A DNA stretch of 57,319 bases from Nanobdellati archaeon (GCA_027038505.1 JALVWC010000008.1:1-57319); one strand, 5' to 3'. Counted from the first letter of the stretch, positions 1 to 18,490 are shown. A program made the numbers and translations. The notes: generated from the letters alone by a model not told the origin.

Positions 1-245
1 GGATCGGGATGGTCGATGTTTGAGACGATTTGATAGACTTTCTCGGCTAATTCATCGTTAAGCCAAGGATTTATTCTTTTTATAGCTGAGATGAAACGCT
101 TTTTGAGGATAACATCTCTATATGATTCCCTTTCTTTCTCATCGAGAGTTAGATTAGAACCGTGAACATGTTGATAACCCAAGCTCTTGAGAACATTTAT
201 CGCGTGATTTTCGACCATGTATTCTTCGGTTAGCTGTGCACTCAT
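1..245 (-). CDS. hsdR: Type I restriction enzyme R subunit, N-terminal 81 codons only (continues past window start)
   Basis: Not in the ORF track. My reverse-complement translation from ATG 245..243 gives MSAQLTEEYMVENHAINVLKSLGYQHVHGSNLTLDEKERESYRDVILKKRFISAIKRINPWLNDELAEKVYQIVSNIDHPD. This matches the usual HsdR N-terminus pattern (LGY, ERESY, RINPWL). ATGA start/stop overlap with the upstream gene; hsdM/hsdS context. Confidence 0.75.
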   Translation of the reverse strand, partial: MSAQLTEEYMVENHAINVLKSLGYQHVHGSNLTLDEKERESYRDVILKKRFISAIKRINPWLNDELAEKVYQIVSNIDHPD

Positions 246-733
246 ATTGGATCACTTTTTTCTTTAATTTCGTGTCTTATCAGTCTATATACTCTTACTA
301 GAGATATTATGACATTTACAATCAAGAATCCAACTGAATAAAATAATAAAAACTTGAGAATTGTTGAAACGGAGTCGAGATTTGATAAAATTAAACTTAA
401 TATCAGTATGAAAATAGCAATTAGTGTTGTCATAGAAATTGTTGAGTTTATGTGTTCAAGGTATTCGATTTTCGTTCTTTGATTACTCTCTGTTCTTTCT
501 AAGCTATAGTAAACAACCATCATAAGATTCAAAAGTAAAGGTATCAGTATGGCAGATACATTAATAAAATTGTTATAAAACCCTGATTCATCTTTTATAG
601 TAAGGATGAAAAGGAAAGATAAGGCAAATGGAATTATGACTAAAGTGATAATAAACGGTATGAGTTCAAAGTCCTTTTTCATGTGTTTGTAGTAATCATA
701 TATGATTTCAAAGAAGTTGATTGGAGCGTACAT
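242..733 (-). CDS. Small integral membrane protein, 163 aa, four predicted TM helices, no recognised family
   Basis: Four hydrophobic stretches of 20-23 aa: LIPFIITLVIIPFALSFLFILTI, INVSAILIPLLLNLMMVVYYSL, ISMTTLIAIFILILSLILSNL, ILKFLLFYSVGFLIVNVIISLV. ATGA overlaps at both ends (731..735 and 242..245), so it is translationally coupled inside the hsd operon. Confidence 0.7.
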   Translation of the reverse strand: MYAPINFFEIIYDYYKHMKKDFELIPFIITLVIIPFALSFLFILTIKDESGFYNNFINVSAILIPLLLNLMMVVYYSLERTESNQRTKIEYLEHINSTISMTTLIAIFILILSLILSNLDSVSTILKFLLFYSVGFLIVNVIISLVRVYRLIRHEIKEKSDPI

Positions 734-1538
734 CAGTCTCCTCCAATATCTCTTATCTCTTTTAATAATTGCTCAGCTTCATATTTTATGTTGTTCACGT
801 TCTCTACTTCCACCCAAGTTCGAAGTTTTCCCTTAGTAATATTAATGGTACGTTGACTTCTACCAACTTTCACAACGATACTGATCTCCTCATTTTCATC
901 ATAGATACACCCAATATCGCTTAAATTATTGTTTTCAAATGCCTGCTTTATTTTATTTGCTAATTGTAAAAACCTGTTTCTCTTTGATTTTATTGAAACT
1001 TCTACATACATCTCATCTTCATTTTCAATTTCCACTTTCTCTAATCTCCTATCCACATCTGTTGGCTTTTTTGGTATTTTTATCTTAAATTCCATTATCG
1101 GGTTATTCAACAACCCTTTTAATCCAAGAATTACAGGTTCTATTTTAACATCTAAACCCCAATCTTTAAGTGCACATGAAAAAATTGATCTTACGCCAAT
1201 ATTGCCTATCCTTTGAAGTATAAGATACCCCCTTCTGGTGCTGTTGTCATACTCAATAAGGTAAAAATAATCATAAAGTGGTGATTCGTTTGGCTCAATT
1301 GTTTTAGTTATTTGTTGAGTGTCTACATTTACAACTGGACTTTTTGCACCATATCTGCCATATTGAATACAACCCCATGCCTTGTTATCTCGGATGTTTA
1401 CTGAGTTTAATATGAGAGTAGTTTGGTCTTGGTCGTCTATATATCCATTCCTTTGTTATTTTGTAAGAAATTTAAGAAGTCTTGCTCACTATCTCCAACA
1501 ATTTCAAATCTATATGGAGCCAAGAAGTTTCTTGGCAT
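733..1538 (-). pseudogene. Frameshifted orphan protein (~268 aa if repaired), no recognised family
   Basis: ATG at 1538..1536 lies 1 nt after the hsdS stop and opens MPRNFLAPYRFEIVGDSEQDFLNFLQNNKGMDI*, with the stop at 1439..1437. The -1 frame is open from 1455 to the stop at 733 with no ATG/GTG/TTG before 1113, and reads ..GYIDDQDQTTLILNSVNIRDNKAWGCIQYGRYGAKSP..LLNNPIMEFKIKIPKKP.. The track lists only its last 126 aa (733..1113). Confidence 0.6.
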
Positions 1539-1539
1539 C

Positions 1540-2784
1540 TTACAACCCCTCCACTCTCAGTCTGCCAAACACTAACTGAGGCAGTAGTGTATCCTGAATC
1601 TTTTTTAAAATTATTATTTCTTTCTGATTATTTATTATTTTCTTGAAGATAGGTTCGACGAGAAAATGGAAGCGTTGAAGGATCGATTGTGGTGGAAGCA
1701 GAATCTTAATACTTTCCAATTCAGGCTTTGTTATAGCATCAAAGGTAGTTCCTCTTTCAAAGGATTTTAAAATTTCATTATATGTCTTCAGATAAACATA
1801 TAAAAATGTCCAAAATTCACTTCTTAGGGCTGCTATGCCCCTTCCAATGACATATTCTCTATCTGCAATATTTAGCTCTCCCACGGGTGCTCTTACAGTT
1901 ACCAATATATCAAATGGTTTTGCCATCTTGCTAATTTGGGTGCTATATGTATCTGTATGTGGTGTATATTGTCCAAACTGCCCCTTTCCCTGAATAAATG
2001 GCAACCCTCTTCCTTCTTGGTTATAGTATTTAGAAGGTGGAGATTGCCCCATTATAACTTCAGCTATATTTTTTAACTCTCTGATTTCCCAACCCTTTGG
2101 AATCTCCATGTCCAGCTCCTCGTTATAAACGAACTCCTCATCTTGGAAAGGCTCAAAATCGATGAACCAGCTTTTGAATATCGCCATCGCCATCTTTTCC
2201 AGAATCTCGTTCTGCTTGCGTTTGTTCTCTATGAGGTCGTCGAACCATGAAAGAACGGTTGCGATGCGGGTTTGTTCTTCTGGGGGTGGGTAAGGGATTT
2301 CCAACTGTTCTAAAGCGTCTTTGGGCACACGTTGCCTCCCACTTGTACCAGTCATAGTATATTGCAATCCTTCTCTAATAACTGGAAACTTAAAAAAATA
2401 GAACAGGTAAAGTAAATCCACCATATCGTCTTTTGGAAGGATTGAAAAGACTTCAATCGTAGCTACCCACTTATAATTACTCTCTTTTGGAACAATACAG
2501 CTTTTTCCATGCTCAAACGATGGGGTTATCTTAGCTAATAGTAATGAACCTGAGAAAACCTCAATTCCGCTTTTTACTTCATTTGGATTCTTTACCTCAA
2601 ATTTTGGGTAAAGACCATCTTCAGGAATATTTTCCATGCTGATGAATGCGATTGGCTTTTTGTCAGTATTTCTTGGTTTTTTATTAATTTTAATAACCTT
2701 TCCGAGTTCCTTAGTCTCCCAATCCTTCGGCATCTCCCCAATCTCCGTTTCCCTGAACTCCATTTCCCATCTGAATTTGACCAT
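1540..2784 (-). CDS. hsdS: Type I restriction-modification specificity subunit (two target-recognition domains)
   Basis: 414 aa with two repeated halves. Conserved central helix EEQTRIATVLSWFDDLIENKRKQNEILEKMAMAIFKSWFIDFEPF and C-terminal helix IINNQKEIIILKKIQDTLLPQLV. GGAGGT SD 7 nt upstream of the ATG. Confidence 0.9.
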   Translation of the reverse strand: MVKFRWEMEFRETEIGEMPKDWETKELGKVIKINKKPRNTDKKPIAFISMENIPEDGLYPKFEVKNPNEVKSGIEVFSGSLLLAKITPSFEHGKSCIVPKESNYKWVATIEVFSILPKDDMVDLLYLFYFFKFPVIREGLQYTMTGTSGRQRVPKDALEQLEIPYPPPEEQTRIATVLSWFDDLIENKRKQNEILEKMAMAIFKSWFIDFEPFQDEEFVYNEELDMEIPKGWEIRELKNIAEVIMGQSPPSKYYNQEGRGLPFIQGKGQFGQYTPHTDTYSTQISKMAKPFDILVTVRAPVGELNIADREYVIGRGIAALRSEFWTFLYVYLKTYNEILKSFERGTTFDAITKPELESIKILLPPQSILQRFHFLVEPIFKKIINNQKEIIILKKIQDTLLPQLVFGRLRVEGL

Positions 2785-2797
2785 AAACCTCTACCTC

Positions 2798-3460
2798 CTA
2801 TGAGCGGTATATATTCAACGCTTTATCCGGTCTTATTATACGAATATTATATGCATCACGTAAAGCTTTGTTCAGCTTTGTAAGGTATCCATCCATCGTA
2901 ACAAAATAATCTGTGTCTTCAAATATCGCAGTAGTGAGAAGTAGTGCGTCCTGGGTTGTCAGTTCGGGATTGTAGAAAATTAAGGAAGAATATACCTCAA
3001 AGAAATCTGGAAATGCTGAAGGAGTGGCAGTTGGTATAATTCCTATAACTTCCGTCCTAAATAATACATCAAATCCTTCTAACGTAAGTTCATATATCCT
3101 CTTTCCAACTTTTTCTGGGATAGTTGCCTCTCGTGTTTCCCGTCGTGATATCCATCTCGAAAGAGGTATCCCTTTATTAAGCATAATTACCGTTCTAGCT
3201 TCTTCTCGAACTCCAGAGAAAATTTCACTCAGTGAAAACTCCACTACTACAACATCTTTATTCTCTCTTGGATTTGATAGAACATAGTCAATAAATCTAA
3301 CTGACTTTTCATATCTTTTATCATATACTCTCTTGAATTCAGGAGATAACTTCTGCTCGGTGATTATGTAACCTATTATCTTATGGGACATCAACCAATG
3401 AACTAAAACATTACTGTCTATGACAAATCTGGTCATTTCTCTTTTAGCTATCTCGCTCAC
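2798..3460 (-). CDS. PIN-domain protein (putative ribonuclease), 220 aa
   Basis: The acidic residues are spaced as in PIN domains: FVIDSNVLV, VVVEFSLSEI, TTQDALLLTTA, YFVTMDG. GTG start overlaps the stop of the upstream micro-ORF (GTGA at 3457..3460). An alternative start is M9. Confidence 0.7.
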   Translation of the reverse strand: MSEIAKREMTRFVIDSNVLVHWLMSHKIIGYIITEQKLSPEFKRVYDKRYEKSVRFIDYVLSNPRENKDVVVVEFSLSEIFSGVREEARTVIMLNKGIPLSRWISRRETREATIPEKVGKRIYELTLEGFDVLFRTEVIGIIPTATPSAFPDFFEVYSSLIFYNPELTTQDALLLTTAIFEDTDYFVTMDGYLTKLNKALRDAYNIRIIRPDKALNIYRS

Positions 3461-3603
3461 CCCTTCTTTTTCTTCTTATAGCTCCATAAACCCTTAATTT
3501 GACCTGCTCTACCATATTTTGTCGTTCTTTGTCGGATAGAATAATATTTTTTGGTTACCGGATTGTAGATTCTCTTTTTCTTGGATTTCTTTTTGGCAGT
3601 CAT
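3457..3603 (-). CDS. Unannotated 48-aa lysine-rich micro-protein, possible PIN partner
   Basis: Below the ORF-track size cutoff. My translation is MTAKKKSKKKRIYNPVTKKYYSIRQRTTKYGRAGQIKGLWSYKKKKKG*: 19 of 48 residues are K/R and none are D/E. GGTGA SD sits 6 nt upstream of ATG 3603. The stop overlaps the PIN start. Confidence 0.5.
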   Translation of the reverse strand: MTAKKKSKKKRIYNPVTKKYYSIRQRTTKYGRAGQIKGLWSYKKKKKG

Positions 3604-3668
3604 TTTAATTCACCAAATACAAAGTATATTCCCTAAAATCTGAGACTTTGATATTTTCTCATAATATA

Positions 3669-5303
3669 TCATGCCTCCAGCTTATATCCTATATCAACTC
3701 GTTTTTTAATCTCAGTTAATATAGCCCTCTTTCTCATTTTGATAAAGCATTCTATATCATCCCTTAAGAGACAATCAAGAGCTTCTTCGGGTATCAAGTG
3801 AGTCTTCAGAATTTCCTTAACTTTTTCTTTCCCCATACTTTCAATAAGTTCCTTAAAATACTTTGATGGTCTCTTAGAGGATTTCTTTTGATTTGTAGAT
3901 ATTAAGGTTTTTACAACAACTCGATTATCTTTGAACATTGATTTTGGGAAAATATGATCAATTTGAACTTTTTCTATTTCAAATTTTGGTGACTGTCCTG
4001 TTCGGAAGTCCAACGCTCCTTTCAGAGCTATCAAACATAACACTGCCTTGTGAATAGCTGAATAACTACTCTCGACATCTAAGTCCACTTCATTGATATT
4101 GAATTTTGTTATGAAGTTTGGTACTTTGCCATTCAAAATCCATTCTTTGAAATCTTTCAAATCCCTAAATGACTTAGTATCAACCGCTTGGTCATATCTC
4201 TTGGAGAATACTGACGCCCAATACCAGCGGTCTATTTTTTCATAGTTTTCTTTAGTGTCAAGACTATTCTTTTTCAGAAAGTGTATCATTGCAGCCATGG
4301 GGATCAGCATTGTAGTGTATGGCATCCATTTATCAAACTCTAAAACACCATAACTGTCTTTTGTTCGTCTGTATGCTAATTCTAACATTTTACATGCTGT
4401 TTCCCAGTCTCTCTCAAAATCTACTTGAGATAAATTAAGTACATTTGCACGTTTTGGTTCTATCCCCCGTATTAATGCTATTGTTTTGAGGATAAATTCC
4501 TCTTTGACGTACTTTATGAATTCATACTTGCCCTTTGATTGTTTAAGCAATTCTCTTAGTTTTATTCCATGATTATATAATCTTGCAGTTAACAAGTCAA
4601 ACAGAGAAAGTAGAAGCCCAGTTCTATTTATTCTCTCAAATGTTTCCACTATTTTCTCCAAGGGAGTATCCGCAGGCAAGGTGACTACATGAACCTTATA
4701 CCCCACAATTCTACTTGCAATCTTCATTATCTCACGGAATTTGGGGTGATCACTGAATTTTTCAATTATTACATCCAAATCTCGTAGGTCTGAAAAAGCG
4801 ATTATGTTCTCATCTTCTTCTAGCTTTTGAATTTCCTTTCTATAAAAAGTGCTCTTACTAATAACTGCATCTTCCCATTCTCCATTTAATGCTTTCTCAA
4901 TATCAAGGTAAAATCTGTGAGGGTGTCTTGATTCTCTTAATGGTATTTCTGGCTGGTAAAACGCATAAAAGAGAGAAGTTATTCTTTGCTGACCATCAAG
5001 TATAACTTTTACCACCGATTGTATTTTAGCCTGAGGATTGACTTCTTTAACCCCCTCTATAAGCCTTAATGCAAATGGTGCTTCATTAAGCGTTGGATCT
5101 TTGCTGTATGTGGTCTCTAACCATAGAATTGAGTCTATATAGTATCCCCCCACAATAGAAACTAATAATTCCCTAACATCTTCTGGATACCATACAAAGC
5201 TTCTTTGAAAATCTGGTATTACTATTTTTCCTGTATATACCTCCTTTAATAACTCTCGAAGCTCAATCTTGGCAGGATCCATATTCTCAACTCTCCAACC
5301 CAT
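3669..5303 (-). CDS. DUF262 (ParB-like NTPase/nuclease N-domain) plus DUF1524 (His-Me finger) protein, GmrSD-like type IV restriction family
   Basis: N-terminal IPDFQRSFVW and LDGQQRITSL motifs; C-terminal QIDHIFPKS. ATG 5303 overlaps the hsdM C-fragment by 17 nt. An alternative ATG at 5282 lies 4 nt after that stop, with GGAG upstream. Confidence 0.8.
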   Translation of the reverse strand: MGWRVENMDPAKIELRELLKEVYTGKIVIPDFQRSFVWYPEDVRELLVSIVGGYYIDSILWLETTYSKDPTLNEAPFALRLIEGVKEVNPQAKIQSVVKVILDGQQRITSLFYAFYQPEIPLRESRHPHRFYLDIEKALNGEWEDAVISKSTFYRKEIQKLEEDENIIAFSDLRDLDVIIEKFSDHPKFREIMKIASRIVGYKVHVVTLPADTPLEKIVETFERINRTGLLLSLFDLLTARLYNHGIKLRELLKQSKGKYEFIKYVKEEFILKTIALIRGIEPKRANVLNLSQVDFERDWETACKMLELAYRRTKDSYGVLEFDKWMPYTTMLIPMAAMIHFLKKNSLDTKENYEKIDRWYWASVFSKRYDQAVDTKSFRDLKDFKEWILNGKVPNFITKFNINEVDLDVESSYSAIHKAVLCLIALKGALDFRTGQSPKFEIEKVQIDHIFPKSMFKDNRVVVKTLISTNQKKSSKRPSKYFKELIESMGKEKVKEILKTHLIPEEALDCLLRDDIECFIKMRKRAILTEIKKRVDIGYKLEA

Positions 5304-6891
5304 ATCCTAATGTTTCAAAAATCTCTCTCACTTTTGCCGTGAGTTCTTTTTCCCGCTTCAAGAGCTCGGCTAATTCTTTACTGTATTTTCTCATCTTCTC
5401 TTCAAATGTCCTCTGATCATCTAACTCCAGCTTAACTCCGACATATCTTCCCGGTGTCAAAACGTAGTTATTCCTTGCTATCTCCTCTATTGTCGCAACC
5501 TTAGCAAACCCCACCTCATCTATCTTGTCAAGCTCTCCCTTCTCAAAAAGCCTGAACTCCTCAACTATTTTCGCTATATGCTCGTCAGTCATTACATTCT
5601 ACCTTCTTGAAATCGGTGTGTAAAGATCCTTGGCATTTACGAAAAGCACCTTCCCTTTCATGTATTCTGGCTTTTCCTTCCTAACGAACCAAAGAGAAAC
5701 TGGCAACGATACGTTGTAGAATAGCTTTGGTGGACAGGCAACAATTCCGTAAACGAGATCAGTCTTGACTATCGCTTCTCTTATCTCTCCCTCTACACCA
5801 CCAGCCGACAGTGCTCCATTTGCCATAACGAAGCCAGCTTTTCCATTCGGTGCTAAATGGTAAATGAAGTGAAGAATCCACATATAGTTTGCGTTGCTGT
5901 TTGGAGGGACAGGCACTCTAATTCCGTTTATCCTCAATCTTGGATCATCAGGATTAATCCTTTCAGCACCCCACTCGCTGTCGTTAAAAGGTGGATTGGA
6001 AGTTACATAATCAAACCTCATGTCGTGAAACTTGTCATCGTGATAGGAGTCGCCAACTTTTATATCTCCTTCAACTCCCCTAATGACAAGATTCATCCTC
6101 GTAAGCTTCCATGCCATCTGATCTGAATCCTGCCCATAAATCTGCAATTCAAATCTGTCAATTCCTTCCCTTTCAAGCTTTTCTATCGCTGAAACAAAGA
6201 AACCCCCACCCCCACATGCAGGATCGAACATCCTCCCTCCTTTAATGTCCAAGACCTCAACTATAAGCTTTGTAAGACAACGGGGTGTGTAAAACTTACC
6301 ACCCCTCTTCCCTTCAACCTCAGTAAACTTTCCTAAGAAATACTCGTAGATCCTGCCAAAGATGTCTCTCGCCTTGTGATCGTATCCGAAATCTATCTCC
6401 GAAAAGAGGTTGATTAGATAGGTTAAATCATAGTGGTCAAGGTTTGAATTTACATACTCCTTCGGTATCACACCCTGCAACTGCTTTGGATACTTATTTT
6501 CTAAGATTTCGATAGCATTTTCTATGATCTCCGCAATGTTTGGTTGATTCGCATTATTCTTCAGATAATCCCATCTTGCCTCCTCTGGAATGTAGAGAAC
6601 GCCAGCTTCGAGGTAATAGTCCTCGTCCTCTAAAGTAAGCTCCCTCAATTCTGTATCATCTATGTAATATGGGCTATTCTTATCGGAAAACAACCTTTTC
6701 AACTCGTTTCTTCTTTCGTAAAATGCGTAAGAGAGATAACGCAGGAAGATAAGGCCAAGAACTATGTATTTGTGCACTTCTACCTTTTTCCTTAGCTTGT
6801 CTGCCGCCTTCCAAAGCTGATTTTCAAAATCAGGTGTGAGTTCATGAAGTTTGGAGTTATCAGCATCCACGAAATTACTGACCTTTGTCAT
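5287..6891 (-). pseudogene. hsdM: Type I R-M N6-adenine DNA methyltransferase subunit, split by an in-frame TAG at 5599..5601 (430-aa plus 101-aa fragments)
   Basis: Motif I FDPACGGGGFF and motif IV TSNPPFN. Read-through gives ..DLYTPISRR*NVMTDEHIAKIVEEF..IEEIARNNYVLTPGRYV, a normal contiguous HsdM C-terminus in the same frame. Confidence 0.85.
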
Positions 6892-6924
6892 TAGTTATCA
6901 CCTCTATGTATTTGGAGATTTATT

Positions 6925-6945
6925 TATCGATATATATTTTTTGTT
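6925..6945 (-). promoter_or_regulatory. Candidate TATA/BRE promoter of the hsd operon
   Basis: Minus strand reads AAAAAATATATATCGATAAATA about 40-50 nt upstream of ATG 6891. GAGGTGAT SD at 6897..6904. Confidence 0.35.
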
Positions 6946-7097
6946 GATTCGCATTATCGTGTTTTGTTATCGAGAAATGTTGGCTTGATTATGCTGAGAA
7001 ATGCAAGTTTTGGAATTGTGAAACATGGTATAGAATAGGAAATACAAATTCTGCGGTCTAAGAAACAATATGGAATTAAAAGATCAAAAGTAAAAGG

Positions 7098-7622
7098 TTA
7101 ATTGTTTTTAAACTTCGCCTCTCCTTTTTTCTTCTTGGCATTCTTGCTCTTCTTTTCTTCCACGAATGGAGGTCTATCGAGATGGATAACATAATCTGCC
7201 GCATGCTGTAACGCTTTGGAAAAAGCGGGTTCCCTGCCTATGATTATCACTTCCTTGCCGTGTTCCTTTGCTTTGTGAACGAGAGGTAAAAAATCCGCAT
7301 CTCGTGTTGCTACAGCAATTATGTCTATGTCCTTTCTGTGCACAGCATCCATGCACTCAACCGCAAGATAAACATCAACATCAGCGGTCTCATCTTTTAT
7401 TTTGCTCATGCCGATGACGGGCTCGAAGCCCTCGTTAGCCACAGCTTCTATCAGCTTTTCTGGAGCATACTGGTTAAGAAAAGCCTTGGCTATAACCACC
7501 TTACCATACTTCTCAAGTTCATATTTCAGCTTCTGGAGGTTGACCTTGAATTCCTTGCGCAGAATGTTCGGGCCATCCATAAACACAGCTATTCTTTTTT
7601 TTCTCCGAAGAAACCTCATCAT
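7098..7622 (-). CDS. NYN-domain (LabA/DUF88-like) protein
   Basis: IAVFMDGPNI, DVDVYLAVECMD, IIAVATRDADFLPLVHKAKEHGKEVIIIG. I prefer ATG 7622, which has GGGTGGT SD 5 nt upstream, over the track start at 7655. Confidence 0.7.
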   Translation of the reverse strand: MMRFLRRKKRIAVFMDGPNILRKEFKVNLQKLKYELEKYGKVVIAKAFLNQYAPEKLIEAVANEGFEPVIGMSKIKDETADVDVYLAVECMDAVHRKDIDIIAVATRDADFLPLVHKAKEHGKEVIIIGREPAFSKALQHAADYVIHLDRPPFVEEKKSKNAKKKKGEAKFKNN

Positions 7623-8061
7623 AAATACCACCCGTAAATTCTGATTTCTCACCAATCTTTATAATTTTAGCAGGTTATATGAAAAGAGCTCTTACCGTTT
7701 ATGCTGCGCTCCTCTCAGCAAAGAACTTAATCCAATGTATGCTGCAGAAGGCCGCGGATCCAAGTATATAGATAATTTCCAAGAATTCCCCCGTATCTTT
7801 GAGAAATGGCAGATTCTTCATCAGTAGCTCTCCCTGTGGTTCAGATTGTTACGATTTTGGATGTGTGGCTGGTGGAATCCATAACTCTGTCTTTTGCGTT
7901 CTCTGGCAAATCATTGAATTCGTATCATTATGCTTTCCTGTTGCGAGGTCCATCGCATTCCCTTTATTCTTCACTCAACTCCGCAGCTTTCTGTTCGTTT
8001 TCCTGCAGTCCGGATGCAAGATCACAGAACTCCTGCAGGGTTCCCAGGATCTCCGCGCATT

Positions 8062-9351
8062 TTACTTCCTGCTCACCTCCACTTCCATAACCACCTCTTC
8101 ACATAAACTTCTCGTTGCTGCGCTTGCCACTGTGCTTAGGTCCTCATCCTCAACCGCAGTCTTGATGTTACTGAGGTCTGTTTCAATCTTCGGAAGGTAA
8201 AGCTGAAGGGCAACCTCGACATCATCGCATCCAAGCTTTTTCGTGTAGGGTGTGGCTGAAACGGCTCTCAGAACCGCCGGATGTACCGCCTCTCTCTCAA
8301 TCGAAAAGTCCGCTATCGGAGCTTTCGGTATGTTCAGCTCTCTGGCCATCGTTTCCTGAAGTTTAAGGGCCTGAGCGGGCTGGAACTTACCTCCGGGGAG
8401 GCCGTCCCTGACAACATAAATGGCTTCTGGATTGTACGCAAGTGTGGAATGTATCAGGTAATTGTAGGCTTCTCTTGCTGTTATCCACGGCTTTATATCT
8501 TTTAGCTCTGATATGCTTATCTCTTCCTTTTTTTCCGTTTTTCTTGCAGGACGTGCCGTTCTCCTGTCCACATCAATGAGGTAAAGCACCACCTTACCTT
8601 CTGTCTGGGAGACCCACACACCCTCTATGTAAGGTTTCCTTCCGTCCTCCACATCATCGAGAAGATGTGATGCCACATTTCTGTAAACATCCGCAATACT
8701 GCTGTAATTGGCCTCTCCGTCGAGCTTTTCCTCCATAATGCTCCTGTGAAACTCGGGCAGCGGTTCTTGCTTTTCTTTTATGCTCGTCCCGAAGTAGGAC
8801 TCGAGCATTTTCGCTTTATCCCTGTTCAGCTTTAGACGGTGTGCTTCCAGAGGGTGCATGTCCCTGATGGAAGCTATGCCGACTTTTTTCAGATCCATAT
8901 CGTAATCCTTTCCGCCGTCAGCCATGATTATTTCCGCATAGCATCTCTTCTCGATGTTCTTGCTGTGCATGACATCAATGGGTAATGATGGCAGTGATAC
9001 CTTGTATTCAATCCCGAGATCCCCAGTCAGATGGTTTCCCACCGCTTTACACACTTCCAGCAGCACCGCATGCTCCAGCTTACATGTTGGTAGCTGTCTG
9101 CCGAATAGCAGCGTTACATCCGCATCGCCGTCCAGCACCCCGCTTTTATACAGCCTGTCCTGAATTTCTGAAAAGGTGAGAGAAGTGTTGCAGTAATTTT
9201 CCATCCAACCGTCGATGATCTTTTCAATCTCATTGCCGTTCATTCTCTTTTTCTCCACGGTTTTTTCCAGATCCTTAATACCGGTGATATACCTCACAAC
9301 GTTCTCGCTATCCACTCCGACCACCTCCGTGCTTGAGTTTTTGAAGAACAT
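8062..9351 (-). CDS. Hypothetical protein, 429 aa, acidic, no family recognised
   Basis: Long uninterrupted ORF with protein-like composition. No SD seen at ATG 9351. Antisense ORFs in the track are short. Confidence 0.6.
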   Translation of the reverse strand: MFFKNSSTEVVGVDSENVVRYITGIKDLEKTVEKKRMNGNEIEKIIDGWMENYCNTSLTFSEIQDRLYKSGVLDGDADVTLLFGRQLPTCKLEHAVLLEVCKAVGNHLTGDLGIEYKVSLPSLPIDVMHSKNIEKRCYAEIIMADGGKDYDMDLKKVGIASIRDMHPLEAHRLKLNRDKAKMLESYFGTSIKEKQEPLPEFHRSIMEEKLDGEANYSSIADVYRNVASHLLDDVEDGRKPYIEGVWVSQTEGKVVLYLIDVDRRTARPARKTEKKEEISISELKDIKPWITAREAYNYLIHSTLAYNPEAIYVVRDGLPGGKFQPAQALKLQETMARELNIPKAPIADFSIEREAVHPAVLRAVSATPYTKKLGCDDVEVALQLYLPKIETDLSNIKTAVEDEDLSTVASAATRSLCEEVVMEVEVSRK

Positions 9352-9990: not shown

Positions 9991-10068
9991 GGTCCGGTAG
10001 CTTAGCCTGGTCGGAGCGCCCGCCTGATAAGCGGGAGGTCGGGAGTTCAAATCTCCCCCGGACCACCA
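9991..10068 (+). tRNA. tRNA-Ile (anticodon GAU), CCA encoded
   Basis: Hand-folded cloverleaf: acceptor GGTCCGG/CCGGACC; D stem GCTT/GAGC; anticodon stem CCCGC/GCGGG with loop CTGATAA; variable AGGTC; T arm GGGAG-TTCAAAT-CTCCC; discriminator A plus CCA. Total 78 nt. Confidence 0.9.
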
Positions 10069-10109
10069 GAACCATGCCATGAATATCTGATGCTCTGGAT
10101 TTATGAAAT

Positions 10110-10180
10110 TTGTTCTTGATATAAGAACAAATATTCTCAAAAAGAGAACAAAGATTTAAAATGTTTTTAAGATAAGAACA
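10110..10180 (+). promoter_or_regulatory. Operator-like AGAACA repeats plus TATA box upstream of the wHTH-MNT gene
   Basis: TTGTTCTT-GATAT-AAGAACAA palindrome at 10110..10130. Further AGAACA copies at 10145..10150 and 10175..10180. ATTTAAAA at 10154..10161 lies ~28 nt before ATG 10186, which suggests a leaderless start. Confidence 0.45.
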
Positions 10181-10185
10181 TATAC

Positions 10186-10741
10186 ATGCTACCGGAAAGT
10201 GTGTGGCCTATTTTGGAGTATTTTTTTGATCACCCCTACGAAGAGATTCATATAAGGGAAATCTCAAGGAGACTTAATCTCACCCCATCTTAATTCCCTA
10301 CATATCAAAAAGAGCGTGGATAGATTGATGGAAGAAAACTTGCTTCTGGAGAAACGCTATGGCAGAATGCGACTGGTAAAAGCTAACGTGGAAAGTGCAT
10401 TTTTCAGATACCTTAAGCTGGCATTTACCATCCGTAAGATGGAGAGGTCGGGCATGCTTGATTTTCTCAAGAAAAACATCCCCGCGGTTTCGTCTATTGT
10501 TCTCTACGGCTCAGCAGCCAGAGGTATGGATTCGATCGAAAGCGATATTGACATATTGGCGATAGGTGGCAGAAAGCGTTTGAATCTCTCGGAATTCGAG
10601 GAGAAAGTTAACAGAAGGGTACAACTCATCGTGATGAGTTGGGGTGAATGGAAAAAAACTTACAGGGAGAACAGAGCGTTCTACACAGAAGTGATAACCC
10701 GCGGTGTGCCGTTATTTGGTGATCTTCCGGTGATCGAATGA
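10186..10741 (+). pseudogene. wHTH plus minimal nucleotidyltransferase (MNT antitoxin-type), frameshifted after the wHTH
   Basis: 10186..10293 encodes MLPESVWPILEYFFDHPYEEIHIREISRRLNLTPS*. The +1 frame continues ..PHLNSLHIKKSVDRLMEENLLLEKR.. into the track ORF 10316..10741, which carries LYGSAARGMDSIESDIDILAIG (GSxxRG..DxD). The shift sits next to the CCCC run at 10283..10286. Confidence 0.7.
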
Positions 10742-11165
10742 GGTTGGATGATTGCTTTAGAAGAAGGCTTTTAAGAGCTGACAGGCCGGATAAGAAAAAG
10801 GCCGGGAGATCGGTTGAGATCGCTGAGGAAAAACTTAAAAGAGCTGTTATGTTCCTGAAGGACGGTATTTATGATGCATGTATCCTTTATGGCTATATGG
10901 CCATGTTTCATGCTGCGAGGGCCATCCTTTTTAAAGATGGATTGGTTGAGAAAAGTCACGCGTGCCTGATAGCCTATCTCAGAGAAAAATACAGCTCCAT
11001 AATTCCGGCCGGTATTCTAAATGCTATGGATGCATACAGGCTGGAGAGACACGAGGTGATGTATGGGATGGGTTCAGAATAGTGCGCGATGATTGCGAGG
11101 CTCTGGTGGAGGATGCTGAAAAGCTCATCGAGCTCGTGAGAGATCTTCTGGAAGGAAGAGGGTAA
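10738..11165 (+). pseudogene. HEPN-domain protein (toxin partner of MNT), C-terminal helix displaced by a frameshift
   Basis: 10738..11082 ends ..AYRLERHEVMYGMGSE*. The adjacent frame (track ORF 10962..11165) continues ..DGFRIVRDDCEALVEDAEKLIELVRDLLEGRG, the expected HEPN C-terminus. ATGA overlap with the MNT gene. Confidence 0.65.
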
Positions 11166-14600: not shown

Positions 14601-15437
14601 TCACCGTATAAGGTGGCTTCCATCACAGCTTCTTGCCTTAAACGGCACACCCTCCCTGCAAAAAGCGCAGCTTATGCCAAGTTCGTGACATTTCTCTTCC
14701 ACCATACCCAGCATGCTCATCCTGAGCTCTTCGGGAAGATAAAAGTAACTTCCAACCTTTTCTCCTTTCCTGAAGTAAAGCTCATCAAGCTTTTCTTTCA
14801 GCTGTGGGAAATGCAGCACTATTCTGCCGTATCCGTCCATCTTCAGCTTCAGTGTGGATGTTACAACATGATCCACAAAGCTGCACGCTTTCAGCACCTC
14901 CAGCCATTCCTCTTTACTTGCCCACGGCAGTAAGGGATCGAGCCTCAGGATTGTGGGCACTCCGGCATCATGCAGTATTTTTAGCGCTTCAATCCTCTTT
15001 TCCATTGGTGGTGCGTTCAGCTCAAGTTGCCTGGCTGTCCTGCCCGTAATTGTTATGGCAACGGCAGCCCTCATCTCCGCAAGAAGGTCAACATCTCTGA
15101 CAACTATATTGCTCTTTGTTACAACAAGGACTCTGACGCTGTGTTCCTTCATTAATTGGAGACATTTTCTTGTGAGCTCCTTTGTTTTTTCCGCGGGCGG
15201 ATAAGGATCAGAGGAGTTCGACATTGAAATGAGCACACCGCTCTCCAGCCTTTCCAGGTCTTTTTCCAGTCTTCTGAGAAGATCCCTTTTTTCTCTCACC
15301 TCCCAAAAACGTTGAATGTAGGTGGCATAACAGTAAAGGCAGCGATGCGCACACCCGGTGTAGGGGTTGAAGGACAGCTTGGGAGGGCACGTGCACAGCT
15401 TCGATTTCCACGGGTCGAAAGGTTGAAGGATTCGCAT
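14601..15437 (-). CDS. Radical SAM protein
   Basis: CAHRCLYCYA (CxxxCxxC) near the N-terminus; 278 aa. Confidence 0.75.
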   Translation of the reverse strand: MRILQPFDPWKSKLCTCPPKLSFNPYTGCAHRCLYCYATYIQRFWEVREKRDLLRRLEKDLERLESGVLISMSNSSDPYPPAEKTKELTRKCLQLMKEHSVRVLVVTKSNIVVRDVDLLAEMRAAVAITITGRTARQLELNAPPMEKRIEALKILHDAGVPTILRLDPLLPWASKEEWLEVLKACSFVDHVVTSTLKLKMDGYGRIVLHFPQLKEKLDELYFRKGEKVGSYFYLPEELRMSMLGMVEEKCHELGISCAFCREGVPFKARSCDGSHLIR

Positions 15438-15446
15438 AAAAACGGG

Positions 15447-16388
15447 TTAGCCGTGAGATCTTAAAAACTCTTCCACCTCCCGCCTTGTGGACAGGGAGGT
15501 TATGGCTCCTTTCCTCTGAACGGAAAGGGCCGCAACGGCGGATGCGAAGCGCAACAGCTCATAGCCTTCCATCCCGTCAAGCATCCCGACACAAACACCT
15601 GCCGAGAAAGCGTCTCCAGCTCCAGTGGTATCGACAGCTTTAACCTTAAAGGCCGGACATGAAATTTTTTCACCAGTTCTGGTAACCATCACGCAACCCT
15701 CGGCACCTCGAGTAACTACTGCCATCTTGAGGTGTGCTGACTCCTCCACAAATTCCTGAAGCCATTCGAGCGCTTCCGAAAGCCTGTTCGTGTTGGCAAA
15801 CCAGAGCAATTCTTCTTCAGAAGGAAGGAACACGGTAGACGCTTTGAGAAGGTTAATAAGCTCGTATCTGGCGCTTTCCTTCAAATAATCCCTCCTGAGA
15901 TTTGGATCAAACGAAACTATTAAGTTATGCTTTCGTGCATACTCAATCGCTTTCATCAGCCCCGGCCTGATTTTTTCCCTGAAATAGGAAAGTGTGTGGA
16001 AATGGAAGATCTTTGCGTTTTTGAAGGCCTCTTCCCTAACGCCAAGAACAAGATCCTCATCGGCCGTGCCATCCAGATAAAGTGAGAAATCCGGACTGCC
16101 CCTTTCATCCAGGCTGACAAAAGCCAGCGGAGTCTTCTTCTCGCTCCGCACGATGAAATCCGTAACCACGCGGTTTTCCTTCAGCGTCTCAAGCAGAAAT
16201 TCCCCGAAAGCGTCCTTGCTTATCCCGGTTATCAGAGCTGCGCTTCTCCCGAGTCTGCTAACCGCAACAGCAAAGTTTGCAGGTGCACCACCAAAGCACC
16301 TCTCAAACTTTCCGCAGTCTTTGAGGCTTTTTCCCCTCTCCCCGATGAAGTCTATCAGCACTTCCCCGAGAGTTATGACATCGTGCAT
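15447..16388 (-). CDS. PfkB-family carbohydrate kinase
   Basis: GGAPANFAV and DTTGAGDAF motifs. Confidence 0.8.
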   Translation of the reverse strand: MHDVITLGEVLIDFIGERGKSLKDCGKFERCFGGAPANFAVAVSRLGRSAALITGISKDAFGEFLLETLKENRVVTDFIVRSEKKTPLAFVSLDERGSPDFSLYLDGTADEDLVLGVREEAFKNAKIFHFHTLSYFREKIRPGLMKAIEYARKHNLIVSFDPNLRRDYLKESARYELINLLKASTVFLPSEEELLWFANTNRLSEALEWLQEFVEESAHLKMAVVTRGAEGCVMVTRTGEKISCPAFKVKAVDTTGAGDAFSAGVCVGMLDGMEGYELLRFASAVAALSVQRKGAITSLSTRREVEEFLRSHG

Positions 16389-16421
16389 TTCCCTCCCTCA
16401 GGAACCCGAAATAGAGGGTTA

Positions 16422-17381
16422 TCATGTGTTCCCTCCGTTTATTAAGGAAATTATCTCTTTATCTATTTTTCGGGGACGCAAATTGCCGTATCTCACTTTC
16501 GGTTTTTTTCCGTCGAGCCCCATCTCTGATATTATATCTCTGTACAGCGATCTGGAATCGGAGCTGTCATTCGCAACAGCGTATGCTGCAATCACAACGT
16601 GGGAACCGCTGTAAAACCCATCTCCGTCATCCACAACTATCGTTGCATAGTCCTTCGCCTTTTCACCAATCGAGATGGGAACGCCACCCCTCCTGTACGC
16701 TTCCATCATCATCCCAGAATCCCCTGAAGTATCGCCGCAGGCAACGAACGGACGGGGAATTCCGTCTCCTCCATTACCGTTGAGAATTCGGGCAAGCTCG
16801 TATGCCTTGTGATACTTTCCGACGGGTTTCACCACCCATCTCGATTCACCTTCCTTCCGCAGGATTTCCGTGCCGACAACCTCGAGATAAATGTTCTCCG
16901 GATTTTCTCTGAGTTTGAGCTCTTCGTAAGGTTTTCTAACACAATCCCTTATACCTGCCGAGCATACATGGAGGTCAAAGCTGAACGGCGCATTACAGAT
17001 CAGCTCCCTCGCATAGCGTCTTAAAGTCGTATCCGGCCCGGGCACTTTCTCTTTAAACCGCTCAGAAAGGTCATCACTTCCTCCGCTCAGCTCGTATTCA
17101 AGTACGGTCATCAGCGCAAGCTCCACGCCGTGATCCGTGCGGGGGTTGTAGTTTCTGCACCTTCCGTTTTCGGCTATCACTTTCCCCAGAGTTTTATTGA
17201 TGATTTCCGGTTGCTCTCTTATCTTAACCACAGCATTAACGAACTGTTGCGGAGGTGATTCTCCATCGATACCGAGGAATTCGTAAACCCCTGAAAACTC
17301 GCGGGCCAGAAAATCCCTGCCGATGTCGTGATCGCTGAACGTACCGTCGTGATCGGTTATAATTTTCATTGATTTATCCAT
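16422..17381 (-). CDS. HAD-superfamily-like hydrolase (putative)
   Basis: ITDHDGT (DxDxT), CSAG, and ACGDTSGDSGMM (GDxxxD) in HAD order. Confidence 0.45.
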   Translation of the reverse strand: MDKSMKIITDHDGTFSDHDIGRDFLAREFSGVYEFLGIDGESPPQQFVNAVVKIREQPEIINKTLGKVIAENGRCRNYNPRTDHGVELALMTVLEYELSGGSDDLSERFKEKVPGPDTTLRRYARELICNAPFSFDLHVCSAGIRDCVRKPYEELKLRENPENIYLEVVGTEILRKEGESRWVVKPVGKYHKAYELARILNGNGGDGIPRPFVACGDTSGDSGMMMEAYRRGGVPISIGEKAKDYATIVVDDGDGFYSGSHVVIAAYAVANDSSDSRSLYRDIISEMGLDGKKPKVRYGNLRPRKIDKEIISLINGGNT

Positions 17382-17387
17382 GATTTT

Positions 17388-17438
17388 TCACCAAAAAATT
17401 GTTGAATTTTACATAATTTTTGTAAAAATTTTTGGTGA
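17388..17438. repeat. Nested imperfect palindrome covering the SD of the HAD-like gene
   Basis: Outer arms TCACCAAAAA (17388..17397) and TTTTTGGTGA (17429..17438). Inner arms TTTTACA (17407..17413) and TGTAAAA (17421..17427). Confidence 0.8.
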
Positions 17439-17599
17439 TTTACGGTCATTAATTTGGACATGAAAAGTATATAAATGTTTTGATATTTTACCATGAGCCA
17501 ACATCCACTTTCCCGTCTCCGAAAAACAGAAACAGCTCCTGTAATCGTTATCTGAACAACACCACAACAACAACCAGAAAGCCTTATGATAAACTCTCC

Positions 17600-18490
17600 T
17601 TATTCCTTTACCATCTTCTTCCTGAATTTCTCGTAGAGTTCCACAAGCCCCCGAATGTTTGAGAGCCTTGATGTATCCTTCTCGTACTCTATGTTGAGAT
17701 GGATGCGGAAGTGCGGAAATCTTTCTTCAACCATCTTGTGTAAGAGCATGGTGTCCAGGCTTCTCGCCACGCTTCCGCCGAAAACTATCTTGTTGGGGGC
17801 TACTAGAATCGTCAGCGAGCTTACATAATCCGCGAGGTTCTCATAATATTCGGCTTTTAGCGCCTCATCCCTGAAAACAGCGTGCACATCACCGCCACCC
17901 AACTTTTCCAGATACCTGCCGGAAATGTAGAGTTCCGCACACCCCCTCCTTCCACAGAAGCACTCCTCATTACCCTGCCTCAGAATCATGTGTCCTGCCT
18001 CTATGATTTTATTCAGGAAAAGCAGTTCCTTGTAGTCGTAGTAATTAAGGGGAATCGCATTAACACCTGTACCTATCTGAATTACGAGCAGTGTTTTCGT
18101 ACGGTTATAGACATCTCTGAAGAACTTCTTTGCATGGTGATAGGCAAAAGCATAAACATCGTTGACGGCAAAGCTAACATTAACGTACTGTCCTATGAGA
18201 AACGGAAACCGCTTGGAGTAAAGCCTGAATTTCCATTTCCCCTCAACTTTTTCCATCCTTATTATGCCGGGAAAAGTCGAGATTATTTCCCCATCCAGAG
18301 ACCTGAGGAAAGAGAAGAACTCATCAAAAGCCTCTCGAGACTCTCTAAAAAAGGTGGGCACAATACAGAATTTCTGTTTTTTGTTTACTTCCCTGATTTT
18401 TTCTTCATATTTCTTTTCGAATTCGATGAGATGTTCCTTTTCGGAGAAAAAGACGGAGGTTTTCGTGCCACCGATATCGAGTGCGATCAT
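17600..18490 (-). CDS. ROK-family sugar kinase (glucokinase-like)
   Basis: LDIGGTKT N-terminus and CFCGRRGCAELYISG zinc motif. Confidence 0.8.
   Translation of the reverse strand: MIALDIGGTKTSVFFSEKEHLIEFEKKYEEKIREVNKKQKFCIVPTFFRESREAFDEFFSFLRSLDGEIISTFPGIIRMEKVEGKWKFRLYSKRFPFLIGQYVNVSFAVNDVYAFAYHHAKKFFRDVYNRTKTLLVIQIGTGVNAIPLNYYDYKELLFLNKIIEAGHMILRQGNEECFCGRRGCAELYISGRYLEKLGGGDVHAVFRDEALKAEYYENLADYVSSLTILVAPNKIVFGGSVARSLDTMLLHKMVEERFPHFRIHLNIEYEKDTSRLSNIRGLVELYEKFRKKMVKE

Follow-up and report, generated by a model that had tools for sequence, protein, structure and literature searches.

At one end of a 57,319-nt stretch of DNA from a Nanobdellati archaeon (GCA_027038505.1, JALVWC010000008.1:1-57319; hereafter the window, meaning this stretch at its full length) lies a type I restriction-modification (R-M) operon, made up of hsdM, hsdS and hsdR, which carries additional genes between its own. 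A first-pass annotation of the same DNA, made from the sequence alone, had described these genes as one packed minus-strand unit, and we recovered the same order by listing the open reading frames (ORFs), by Pfam and PADLOC scans and by reading the minus strand directly. The additional genes are treated below as three cassettes, and related loci that were compared with the window carry L-numbers (L001, L007, L013 etc.). The features of the unit are:

5599..6891, minus strand: hsdM, N-terminal part, 430 codons (Pfam HsdM_N and N6_Mtase, E 1.8e-89)
5287..5592, minus strand: hsdM, C-terminal part, 101 codons (N6_Mtase profile positions 260-308; PADLOC MTase_I)
3669..5303, minus strand: cassette 1, predicted GmrSD-like protein (DUF262/GmrSD_N plus His-Me/HNH nuclease), intact, 544 aa
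3457..3603, minus strand: cassette 2a, lysine-rich micro-protein, 48 aa
2798..3460, minus strand: cassette 2b, predicted extended PIN-fold protein, 220 aa from GTG (alternative ATG at 3436)
1540..2784, minus strand: hsdS, intact, encoding two target-recognition domains (two stretches of Methylase_S, E 8.4e-30; PADLOC Specificity_I, E 3e-74)
733..1538, minus strand: cassette 3a, pseudogene of a predicted RexA-fold protein, frameshifted, ~268 aa after repair
242..733, minus strand: cassette 3b, protein with four predicted transmembrane (TM) segments, intact, 163 aa
1..245, minus strand: hsdR, 5' end, with the start at 245 and the remainder beyond the window
6925..6945, minus strand: candidate archaeal TATA-like promoter element (ATATATAT at 6937-6930, read from the sequence)
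7098..7125, minus strand: left boundary of the island, within the last codons of a flanking NYN gene (7098-7655)

The genes are tightly joined. From hsdM onward the junctions are a 17-nt overlap or 4-nt gap, a 65-nt gap, a GTGA overlap, a 13-nt gap with GGAGGT, a 1-nt gap, TGATG between the RexA-like gene (the orphan of the first-pass annotation) and the four-TM gene, and ATGA between the latter and hsdR; all had been reported in this form except TGATG, a 1-nt overlap that had been given as ATGA. Six TATA-like matches were found on the coding strand of 1-7130, a single one of which, ATATATAT at 6937, precedes a gene start; a GAGGTGA ribosome-binding site stands ~10 nt before the hsdM ATG. This agrees with the earlier claim of one obvious promoter at 6925..6945, with the qualification that a simple consensus scan, of low power in DNA of 37% G+C, is no proof of a single promoter. 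The minus strand also carries a 22-nt direct repeat, ATAATGCGAATCAAC(A/C)AAA(A/C)AT, at 6957-6936 and 6557-6536 (20/22 identical); one copy comes just before the putative TATA element of hsdM, the other 400 nt downstream within hsdM.

In composition, the unit stands apart from the DNA beside it. Its G+C content is 0.366 (positions 1-6945) versus 0.474 in the rest of the window, in which every other stretch of 6945 nt has a G+C of at least 0.452, and G+C at third codon positions is 0.29-0.45 in its genes versus 0.548 +/- 0.04 in 50 other genes. The profile is therefore not flat, and the AT-rich island described before is borne out; so are two of the hand counts of G+C on which it had been based (17/60 and 40/60), the third, for 3661..3720, being 17/60 and not 18.

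A metagenomic scaffold of 167 kb (L001) also encodes the DUF262 protein, and the window is its reverse complement, with 3 of 15303 bases differing. On L001, hsdR runs 2.9 kb past the window start and is followed by eRF1 and then by a tRNA synthetase gene, such that the unit, which reaches ~7120 in the window and extends about 2.9 kb beyond the window start, measures ~10 kb in all. The adjoining eRF1 shares 96% identity with its counterpart in a Nanobdellati (DPANN) metagenome-assembled genome (MAG), 85% with the one in a second MAG and about 51% with those of Aenigmatarchaeota, the nearest named phylum. By this measure the host is a DPANN (Nanobdellati) archaeon, and an origin in Archaeoglobi was rejected on these matches. 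In the first of the two MAGs, the sister genome (L076; ~92% nucleotide identity in the flanks), eRF1 follows within 95 nt of the NYN gene and the 10-kb block is absent, the missing segment beginning just within the 3' end of NYN (window ~7114-7125) and ending shortly after hsdR. Homology to this sister genome ends at about window 7114, and the C-terminal tail of NYN diverges after ...GCCAAGAAGAAAAAAG. Because the sister MAG has an empty site and the contrast in composition is strong, the 10-kb hsdM-to-hsdR block is best read as an insertion by horizontal transfer between NYN and eRF1, as the first-pass annotation had proposed. As for the flanking NYN-domain gene (7098-7655, minus strand), its C-terminal tail is unlike that of the sister orthologue, and the island apparently replaced its last ~10 codons.

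The scaffold of the island is a type I R-M system by all three subunits. The translation of hsdM contains the AdoMet-binding and NPPF motifs (FDPACGGGGF and SNPPFN), HsdS has two Methylase_S stretches, and HsdR, as annotated on the source contig, has HSDR_N, ResIII/SF2 helicase and T1RH C-terminal domains. HsdM is 68% and HsdR 62-63% identical to the proteins of L003/4, L007 and L013, loci that hold other combinations of inserts.

The operon is degenerate, with hsdM, the RexA-like gene and hsdR broken. In hsdM, an in-frame TAG at 5601-5599 stands in place of an Arg codon (ISRR*NVMTDEHI in the window versus ISRRRNVMTEEHI in a homologue) and both parts share one reading frame; a second record, a separate Logan assembly, likewise calls hsdM as 430 + 101 aa. 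Recoding of the stop codon, for instance as pyrrolysine, was ruled out, as homologues have Arg at this site and TAG is the normal terminator of 4 of the 50 other window genes. The RexA-like gene has lost one A at 1449-1448 (GGAAAT to GGAAT), a -1 frameshift that leads to a premature TAG at 1439-1437. Both of these lesions are common to the window and L001. On L001, hsdR has frameshifts in two homopolymer runs, +1 in T5 and -1 in A5, and is called as three genes (15059-15553, 15600-15863 and 15860-18121); with two single-base repairs it encodes a protein of 1020 aa that shares 63% identity with the intact HsdR of L013 along its whole length. Intact genes remain for the GmrSD-like protein, both members of the micro-protein/PIN pair, HsdS and the membrane protein.

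Cassette 3 occupies the junction of hsdS and hsdR (hsdS|hsdR). The orphan and the four-TM protein had been listed as separate items; they form one cassette, with an architecture resembling that of RexA/RexB. After repair, the 268-aa sequence can be aligned over its entire length with those of 16 intact homologues (266-284 aa), whose genes are always followed by one for a membrane protein of 162-165 aa. The RexA assignment comes from one medium-confidence model, that of the homologue P0012 (predicted local distance difference test score, pLDDT, 77), whose best match in the PDB was lambda RexA (8twq). Both 8twq chains ranked at the top (E 1.2e-7 and 1e-6; probability 1.0), followed by Iml3 and the constitutive centromere-associated network (Iml3/CCAN), which points to a RexA fold. 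Structure matches in BFVD were uncharacterised caudoviral proteins, down to E 2e-18. The four-TM protein lies downstream of the RexA-like gene in every locus examined; it has 163 aa, compared with 144 aa in RexB, and hydropathy places its hydrophobic segments at 28-46, 56-74, 98-116 and 128-146, compared with 8-26, 48-66, 84-102 and 116-134 in RexB.

The RexA fold is shared by RexA, RdgC and the IML3/kinetochore proteins (PMC11077077), and evidence of this remote kind led to the recognition of a RexAB-type defence in a P. putida prophage, which was then validated (PMC12894663). Like lambda RexAB and the P. putida system, the cassette combines a cytoplasmic protein of ~270-280 aa, with a RexA/RdgC/IML3 fold that is predicted here, and a following four-helix membrane protein of ~145-165 aa, in the same gene order and in a family seen only by structure. 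It differs from these systems, to which no similarity in sequence could be detected, in being mostly archaeal and in lying within hsd operons or ORFan regions, outside any prophage immunity region, and its membrane protein carries an extra N-terminal segment of about 25 residues relative to RexB. The resemblance to RexA/RexB is one of architecture and predicted fold, not of family membership.

We found the RexA-like pair in nine distinct contexts, a small number. Six of the nine lie between hsdS and hsdR of one hsd (HsdR) lineage (the window, L007, L013/14, L092/93, L094/95 and L099 of Methanothermococcus sp. SCGC AD-155-C09, an intact operon), and in three the pair stands alone (two Thermococcus genomes and L090/91). 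A non-embedded RexA-like copy is 76% identical to the L007 protein, whereas the embedded ones are 38-55% identical, and this interleaving of similarities argues for more than one move into or out of the hsdS|hsdR slot. In L093 the four-TM protein looked as if it were fused to HsdR, which proved to be an artefact of a run of N. The RexA-like protein had no tblastn match in phage or plasmid collections and no relative in IMG/VR, where the micro-protein of cassette 2 gave only two weak matches; on these phage, plasmid and IMG/VR searches, carriage by viruses or plasmids was rejected.

Cassette 2, a micro-protein/PIN pair at the hsdM|hsdS junction, is widespread. Members of the micro-protein family have 45-55 aa and share the core RIYNPVTxKYYxIRQRTTKxGxAGQIKGLW, with lysine-rich tails. 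The gene lies directly upstream of a PIN-like gene in every related locus, also where it had gone uncalled. A pattern search of GTDB species representatives returned 60 loci, among them ones in Methanoregula, Methanoculleus, Thermoplasmatales, Thermococcus, Archaeoglobales and DPANN archaea and in a few Dehalococcoidia and candidate phyla radiation (CPR) bacteria, and the family falls into 228 protein clusters, all labelled 'hypothetical' and without a Pfam domain. The PIN-like profile matches 32 of 38 ORFs downstream of micro-protein genes, and in about half of the loci the two genes are separated by -7 to +13 nt, as in a tight two-gene cassette. Within the family, a subset of micro-proteins ends in a hydrophobic C-terminal tail (...KKKSLWDIIFG or SLIDLILGK); these come from L017, L023, L025, L027, L028, L041, L042 and L073, in Thermococcus, Thermoplasmatales, Archaeoglobales and Altiarchaeales.

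The 220-aa partner matches no family in Pfam, NCBIfam, PADLOC or PHROGs, and thus belongs to no curated PIN family there; it has 11 close homologues, and a profile search gave 125 representatives among 1.84 billion proteins. Its AlphaFold2 model has a pLDDT of 91.9, and the best PDB matches of the model are all PIN toxins (PcrIIC1, VapC, FitB, PAE2754 and AF1683); the top 13 are PIN proteins, with probability 0.99-1.00 and a target-normalised template-modelling score (TM-score) of 0.54-0.68. In the alignment, E74, D171 (TTQD) and D190 (FVTxD) are invariant and the Asp of IDxN is present in every homologue called with its full N-terminus, acidic residues such as would be expected of a PIN active site. 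A PIN fold, as the first-pass annotation had called it, is thus supported by both the predicted structure and the conserved acidic residues.

As to genomic context, the pair lies between hsdM and hsdS in L003-5 and L007, and hsdM is directly upstream in 7 of the 60 genome loci, 3 of which have a detectable hsdS downstream. The hsd genes of those loci, including that of Methanoregula, are only 26-29% identical to those of the island, and AAA_15/AAA_21 and SIR2_2 genes are also embedded beside the pair at hsd loci. N6_Mtase is the joint most frequent neighbour family of the pair, tied with Lactamase_B (5 of 108 proteins). In many genomes the pair stands alone, near HerA/NurA, FttA or the proteasome, including in Hydrothermarchaeota and Dehalococcoidia; in three genomes of Thermoplasmatales type it lies just downstream of an FttA/aCPSF1-like gene. 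A distant copy is also present in the sister DPANN MAG, at a different locus (L015; WAPT01000011.1, 147-914); the micro-protein core of that copy is 87% and its PIN protein 32% identical to those of the window, where the island-borne copy is the only one.

By analogy, the micro-protein/PIN pair may work in the manner of a VapBC-type toxin-antitoxin system. It resembles VapBC and FitAB in having a small upstream gene that overlaps or abuts the PIN gene and in a patchy, sometimes multi-copy distribution across archaea and bacteria. It differs from them in that the partner is a lysine-rich protein of 45-55 aa, has no recognisable DNA-binding fold and is apparently more conserved than the PIN protein; in that the PIN protein is longer, by about 80 residues; and in that toxicity is putative here. 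In FitAB, FitA is described as plugging the active site of the PIN protein, and a basic peptide could likewise plug an acidic PIN site.

Cassette 1, upstream of this pair, is, as judged by sequence, a GmrSD-like type IV restriction enzyme, and its embedding is of a kind already known. The protein matches GmrSD_N (E 9e-26) and, at residues 442-479, HNH_4 (E 8.8e-7) in Pfam, as well as PDC-M55C and HEC-05 in PADLOC. Its translation contains the GmrSD_N motifs DFQRSF (FQR), ILDGQQRIT (DGQQR) and FERIN (FxxxN) and the His-Me motif IDHIFP, and its C-terminus also matches Cas9 HNH models. This nuclease end had been called DUF1524; it is HNH_4 that scores in Pfam, and the DUF1524 model does not. Close relatives occupy the same slot in L013 (as two ORFs) and L094. 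RloF is a GmrSD-like protein inside a type I locus, and type I genes are the most enriched neighbours of GmrSD (PMC4619093); TgvAB, of Vibrio cholerae VPI-2, is GmrSD-like and lies in a type I R-M operon (PMC11411939); HEC-05 is BrxU, often embedded in type I R-M (bioRxiv 10.1101/2024.01.29.577857). Cassette 1 is like these family members (RloF, BrxU and TgvAB) in its DUF262 motifs, its C-terminal His-Me nuclease and its place inside a type I R-M operon; unlike them, it scores HNH_4 at the C-terminus instead of DUF1524, and, unlike the two-protein TgvAB, it is a single protein of 544 aa.

The first-pass annotation had described the locus as three unrelated modules on an R-M scaffold, and the comparison with other loci sustains this: each cassette recurs in other hsd operons, in varied combinations, and also outside R-M. 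In L094, for instance, the layout is hsdM-GmrSD-x-hsdS-RexA-like-4TM-hsdR. Payne et al. 2024 have catalogued, as 'guilt by embedding', defence genes that lie inside type I R-M, BREX, DISARM and Hma operons (bioRxiv 10.1101/2024.01.29.577857). The arrangement described here is like theirs and like that of the Campylobacter rlo genes in having extra genes on the same strand between hsd genes, with GmrSD-like genes among the commonest passengers and the cargo mixed on a conserved backbone; it differs in that two of its three cassettes are without a match among the PADLOC v2 models, PDC and HEC candidates included, in its DPANN host and in the pseudogenised state of the carrier operon. A further precedent is prrC, which lies between hsdS and hsdR in EcoprrI (PMC12707154). 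Cassette 3 has in common with PrrC (hsdM-hsdS-prrC-hsdR) that a module, predicted here to be of the abortive-infection type, sits in the hsdS|hsdR slot and is mostly found in that context, but it consists of a RexA-fold protein and a membrane protein, not of an ABC-ATPase/HEPN anticodon nuclease. Embedding in type I R-M is thus already established; the identity of two of the passengers is new. The same two slots hold other embedded cargo in sister hsd operons: a GmrSD-like gene as two ORFs together with a DUF7380/EMARD_N protein in L013 (890-2481), an HTH/Peptidase_M78 and DUF4411 pair in L007 (2986-4548), a small Mrr_cat_2-like protein in L003 (3493-3903) and an RNase_HII/DUF3378 protein in L092 (1878-3668).

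Starting from what was observed directly, namely gene content, insertion, the autonomy and recurrence of the cassettes, folds and disruptions, we consider the locus to be probably a horizontally acquired type I R-M operon of ~10 kb in a DPANN host, with autonomous cassettes at two internal junctions, that is now decaying. The operon belongs to an hsd lineage known from thermophile metagenomes and probably serves as a carrier for cassettes at the hsdM|hsdS and hsdS|hsdR junctions. We infer all biochemical activities, and any coupling between layers, as follows. By analogy with BrxU and TgvAB, the GmrSD-like nuclease may cut modified DNA that escapes the type I enzyme. The basic micro-protein might block the acidic PIN active site until it is lost, in VapBC fashion, and the RexA-fold protein, as a DNA-binding sensor, could open the four-helix membrane channel and abort the infection, much as in lambda RexAB.

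Several observations weigh against parts of this reading. Neither an integrase, a tRNA, a mobility gene nor a flanking direct repeat was found for the 10-kb island, leaving the mechanism of insertion unexplained, and the hsdR frameshifts are documented in a single assembly and lie outside the window. For cassette 3, the global TM-score to RexA is 0.33-0.34 and the C-terminal half of the P0012 model has a pLDDT of 55-70; there is no sequence similarity to RexA or RexB by Pfam or by PHROGs (in which lambda RexA and RexB, as positive controls, scored), the PDB profile search gave no match and hhalign a probability below 1%. Following these blanks in Pfam, PHROGs, the PDB profile search and hhalign, a link to RexA/RexB at the sequence level was rejected. 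For cassette 2, the Foldseek E-values of the PIN match are modest (2e-3), and the additional residues of the PIN protein are without a VapC counterpart. Core identity is 78% for the micro-protein and 38% for the PIN protein, which is unusual for antitoxins, in a set of loci that were found by micro-protein patterns and are biased accordingly. Lastly, many micro-protein/PIN loci lie among housekeeping genes, so that context alone implies no defence.

The first-pass annotation had taken the locus for a multilayer defence operon. The embedded modules of that description stand; an intact system does not, given the hsdM nonsense codon, the RexA-like frameshift and the two hsdR frameshifts. That the operon nonetheless works in this host as a co-transcribed multilayer defence, its lesions being sequencing errors or tolerated (through reassembly of a split HsdM, for example), appears to us highly improbable. 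All genes do lie on one strand with overlapping or very short junctions behind the lone TATA-like element upstream of a gene start, five of the nine are intact, and the two hsdR frameshifts compensate one another, leaving ~87 codons out of frame; yet these codons fall in a conserved N-terminal part of the protein, which homologues retain intact. The window, moreover, has the TAG and the RexA-like frameshift in exactly the form seen in an independent contig that differs by 3 single-nucleotide polymorphisms, hsdM is split in the Logan assembly as well, TAG serves as a stop elsewhere in the window, and the homopolymer tracts concerned (T5, A5 and A2-3) are too short for typical phase variation. 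A different possibility is that a mobile R-M operon carries the cassettes as selfish elements, addiction modules for example, that have neither an antiviral role nor a functional link to R-M, and that the RexA-fold protein is a generic RdgC-like DNA binder. Every cassette also occurs outside R-M loci, often amid housekeeping genes, the RexA fold is common to RdgC and kinetochore proteins (PMC11077077), and the cassettes have been kept while the R-M genes decay. We nevertheless deem this unlikely: in 6 of its 9 contexts the RexA-like pair sits in one and the same slot, hsdS|hsdR, its constant four-TM partner fits RexB and not RdgC, and type I families that are unrelated to one another have the micro-protein/PIN pair at hsdM|hsdS, beside AAA_15/AAA_21 and SIR2-like embedded genes. 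Embedded genes are, in addition, mostly defence-related (Payne et al., bioRxiv 10.1101/2024.01.29.577857).

If the cassettes are coupled to the R-M complex, by analogy with prrC a guard or back-up role would be most plausible for the RexA-like pair, in its prrC-type slot. In its strict form, the RexA-like/four-TM pair would be a PrrC-style guardian of the hsd lineage, silenced by the Hsd complex and triggered by a viral anti-restriction protein. The hsdS|hsdR slot is that of prrC in EcoprrI (PMC12707154) in 6 of 9 contexts, all six embedded copies belong to one HsdR lineage, and the four-TM gene and hsdR overlap by ATGA in the window. The three stand-alone occurrences speak against such a role, as the pair there exists without Hsd proteins; co-inheritance with one hsd lineage could partly explain the association, and in this genome both the sensor and its Hsd partners are broken. 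We therefore hold strict guarding to be doubtful. The boldest proposal, that the RexA-fold/four-helix pair is a hitherto unrecognised, mainly archaeal branch of RexAB-type abortive infection systems turned guardian of one type I lineage, in the PrrC slot and firing upon Hsd inhibition, and that the micro-protein and its PIN partner represent a new family, of toxin-antitoxin or defence type, targeting hsdM|hsdS, is speculative and would be a tentative suggestion at best. The reading we prefer remains that of an acquired operon with autonomous cassettes, now in decay.

Beyond the island, the window holds a HEPN/nucleotidyltransferase pair resembling a toxin-antitoxin system, directly beside a tRNA gene (9991-11161):

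9991-10068, plus strand: tRNA-Ile
10328-10741, plus strand: nucleotidyltransferase ORF
10738-11082, plus strand: HEPN ORF

In the sister DPANN genome about 100 nt stand in place of this ~1.1-kb segment, which therefore represents a second, independent indel of a small cassette. An ORF of 429 aa between the NYN gene and this pair (8062-9351, minus strand) has no match in Pfam, NCBIfam, PADLOC or PHROGs; because it is conserved in the sister genome, it is host-encoded and not part of the island.

As embedding in R-M operons is established, the locus itself comes as no surprise; its value lies in two cassette families that are absent from current defence catalogues. One is the RexA-fold and four-TM pair, which occurs predominantly in thermophilic archaea and, for the most part, at the hsdS|hsdR junction; in a non-exhaustive literature search, the cited RexAB-type literature made no mention of archaea. 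The other is the micro-protein/PIN pair, widespread in archaea, in which the small partner has nowhere been annotated. For experiments, intact orthologues are available, e.g., in Methanothermococcus, Thermococcus and Methanoculleus, and the locus offers a clean example of how a small DPANN genome gained a defence island that then decayed.

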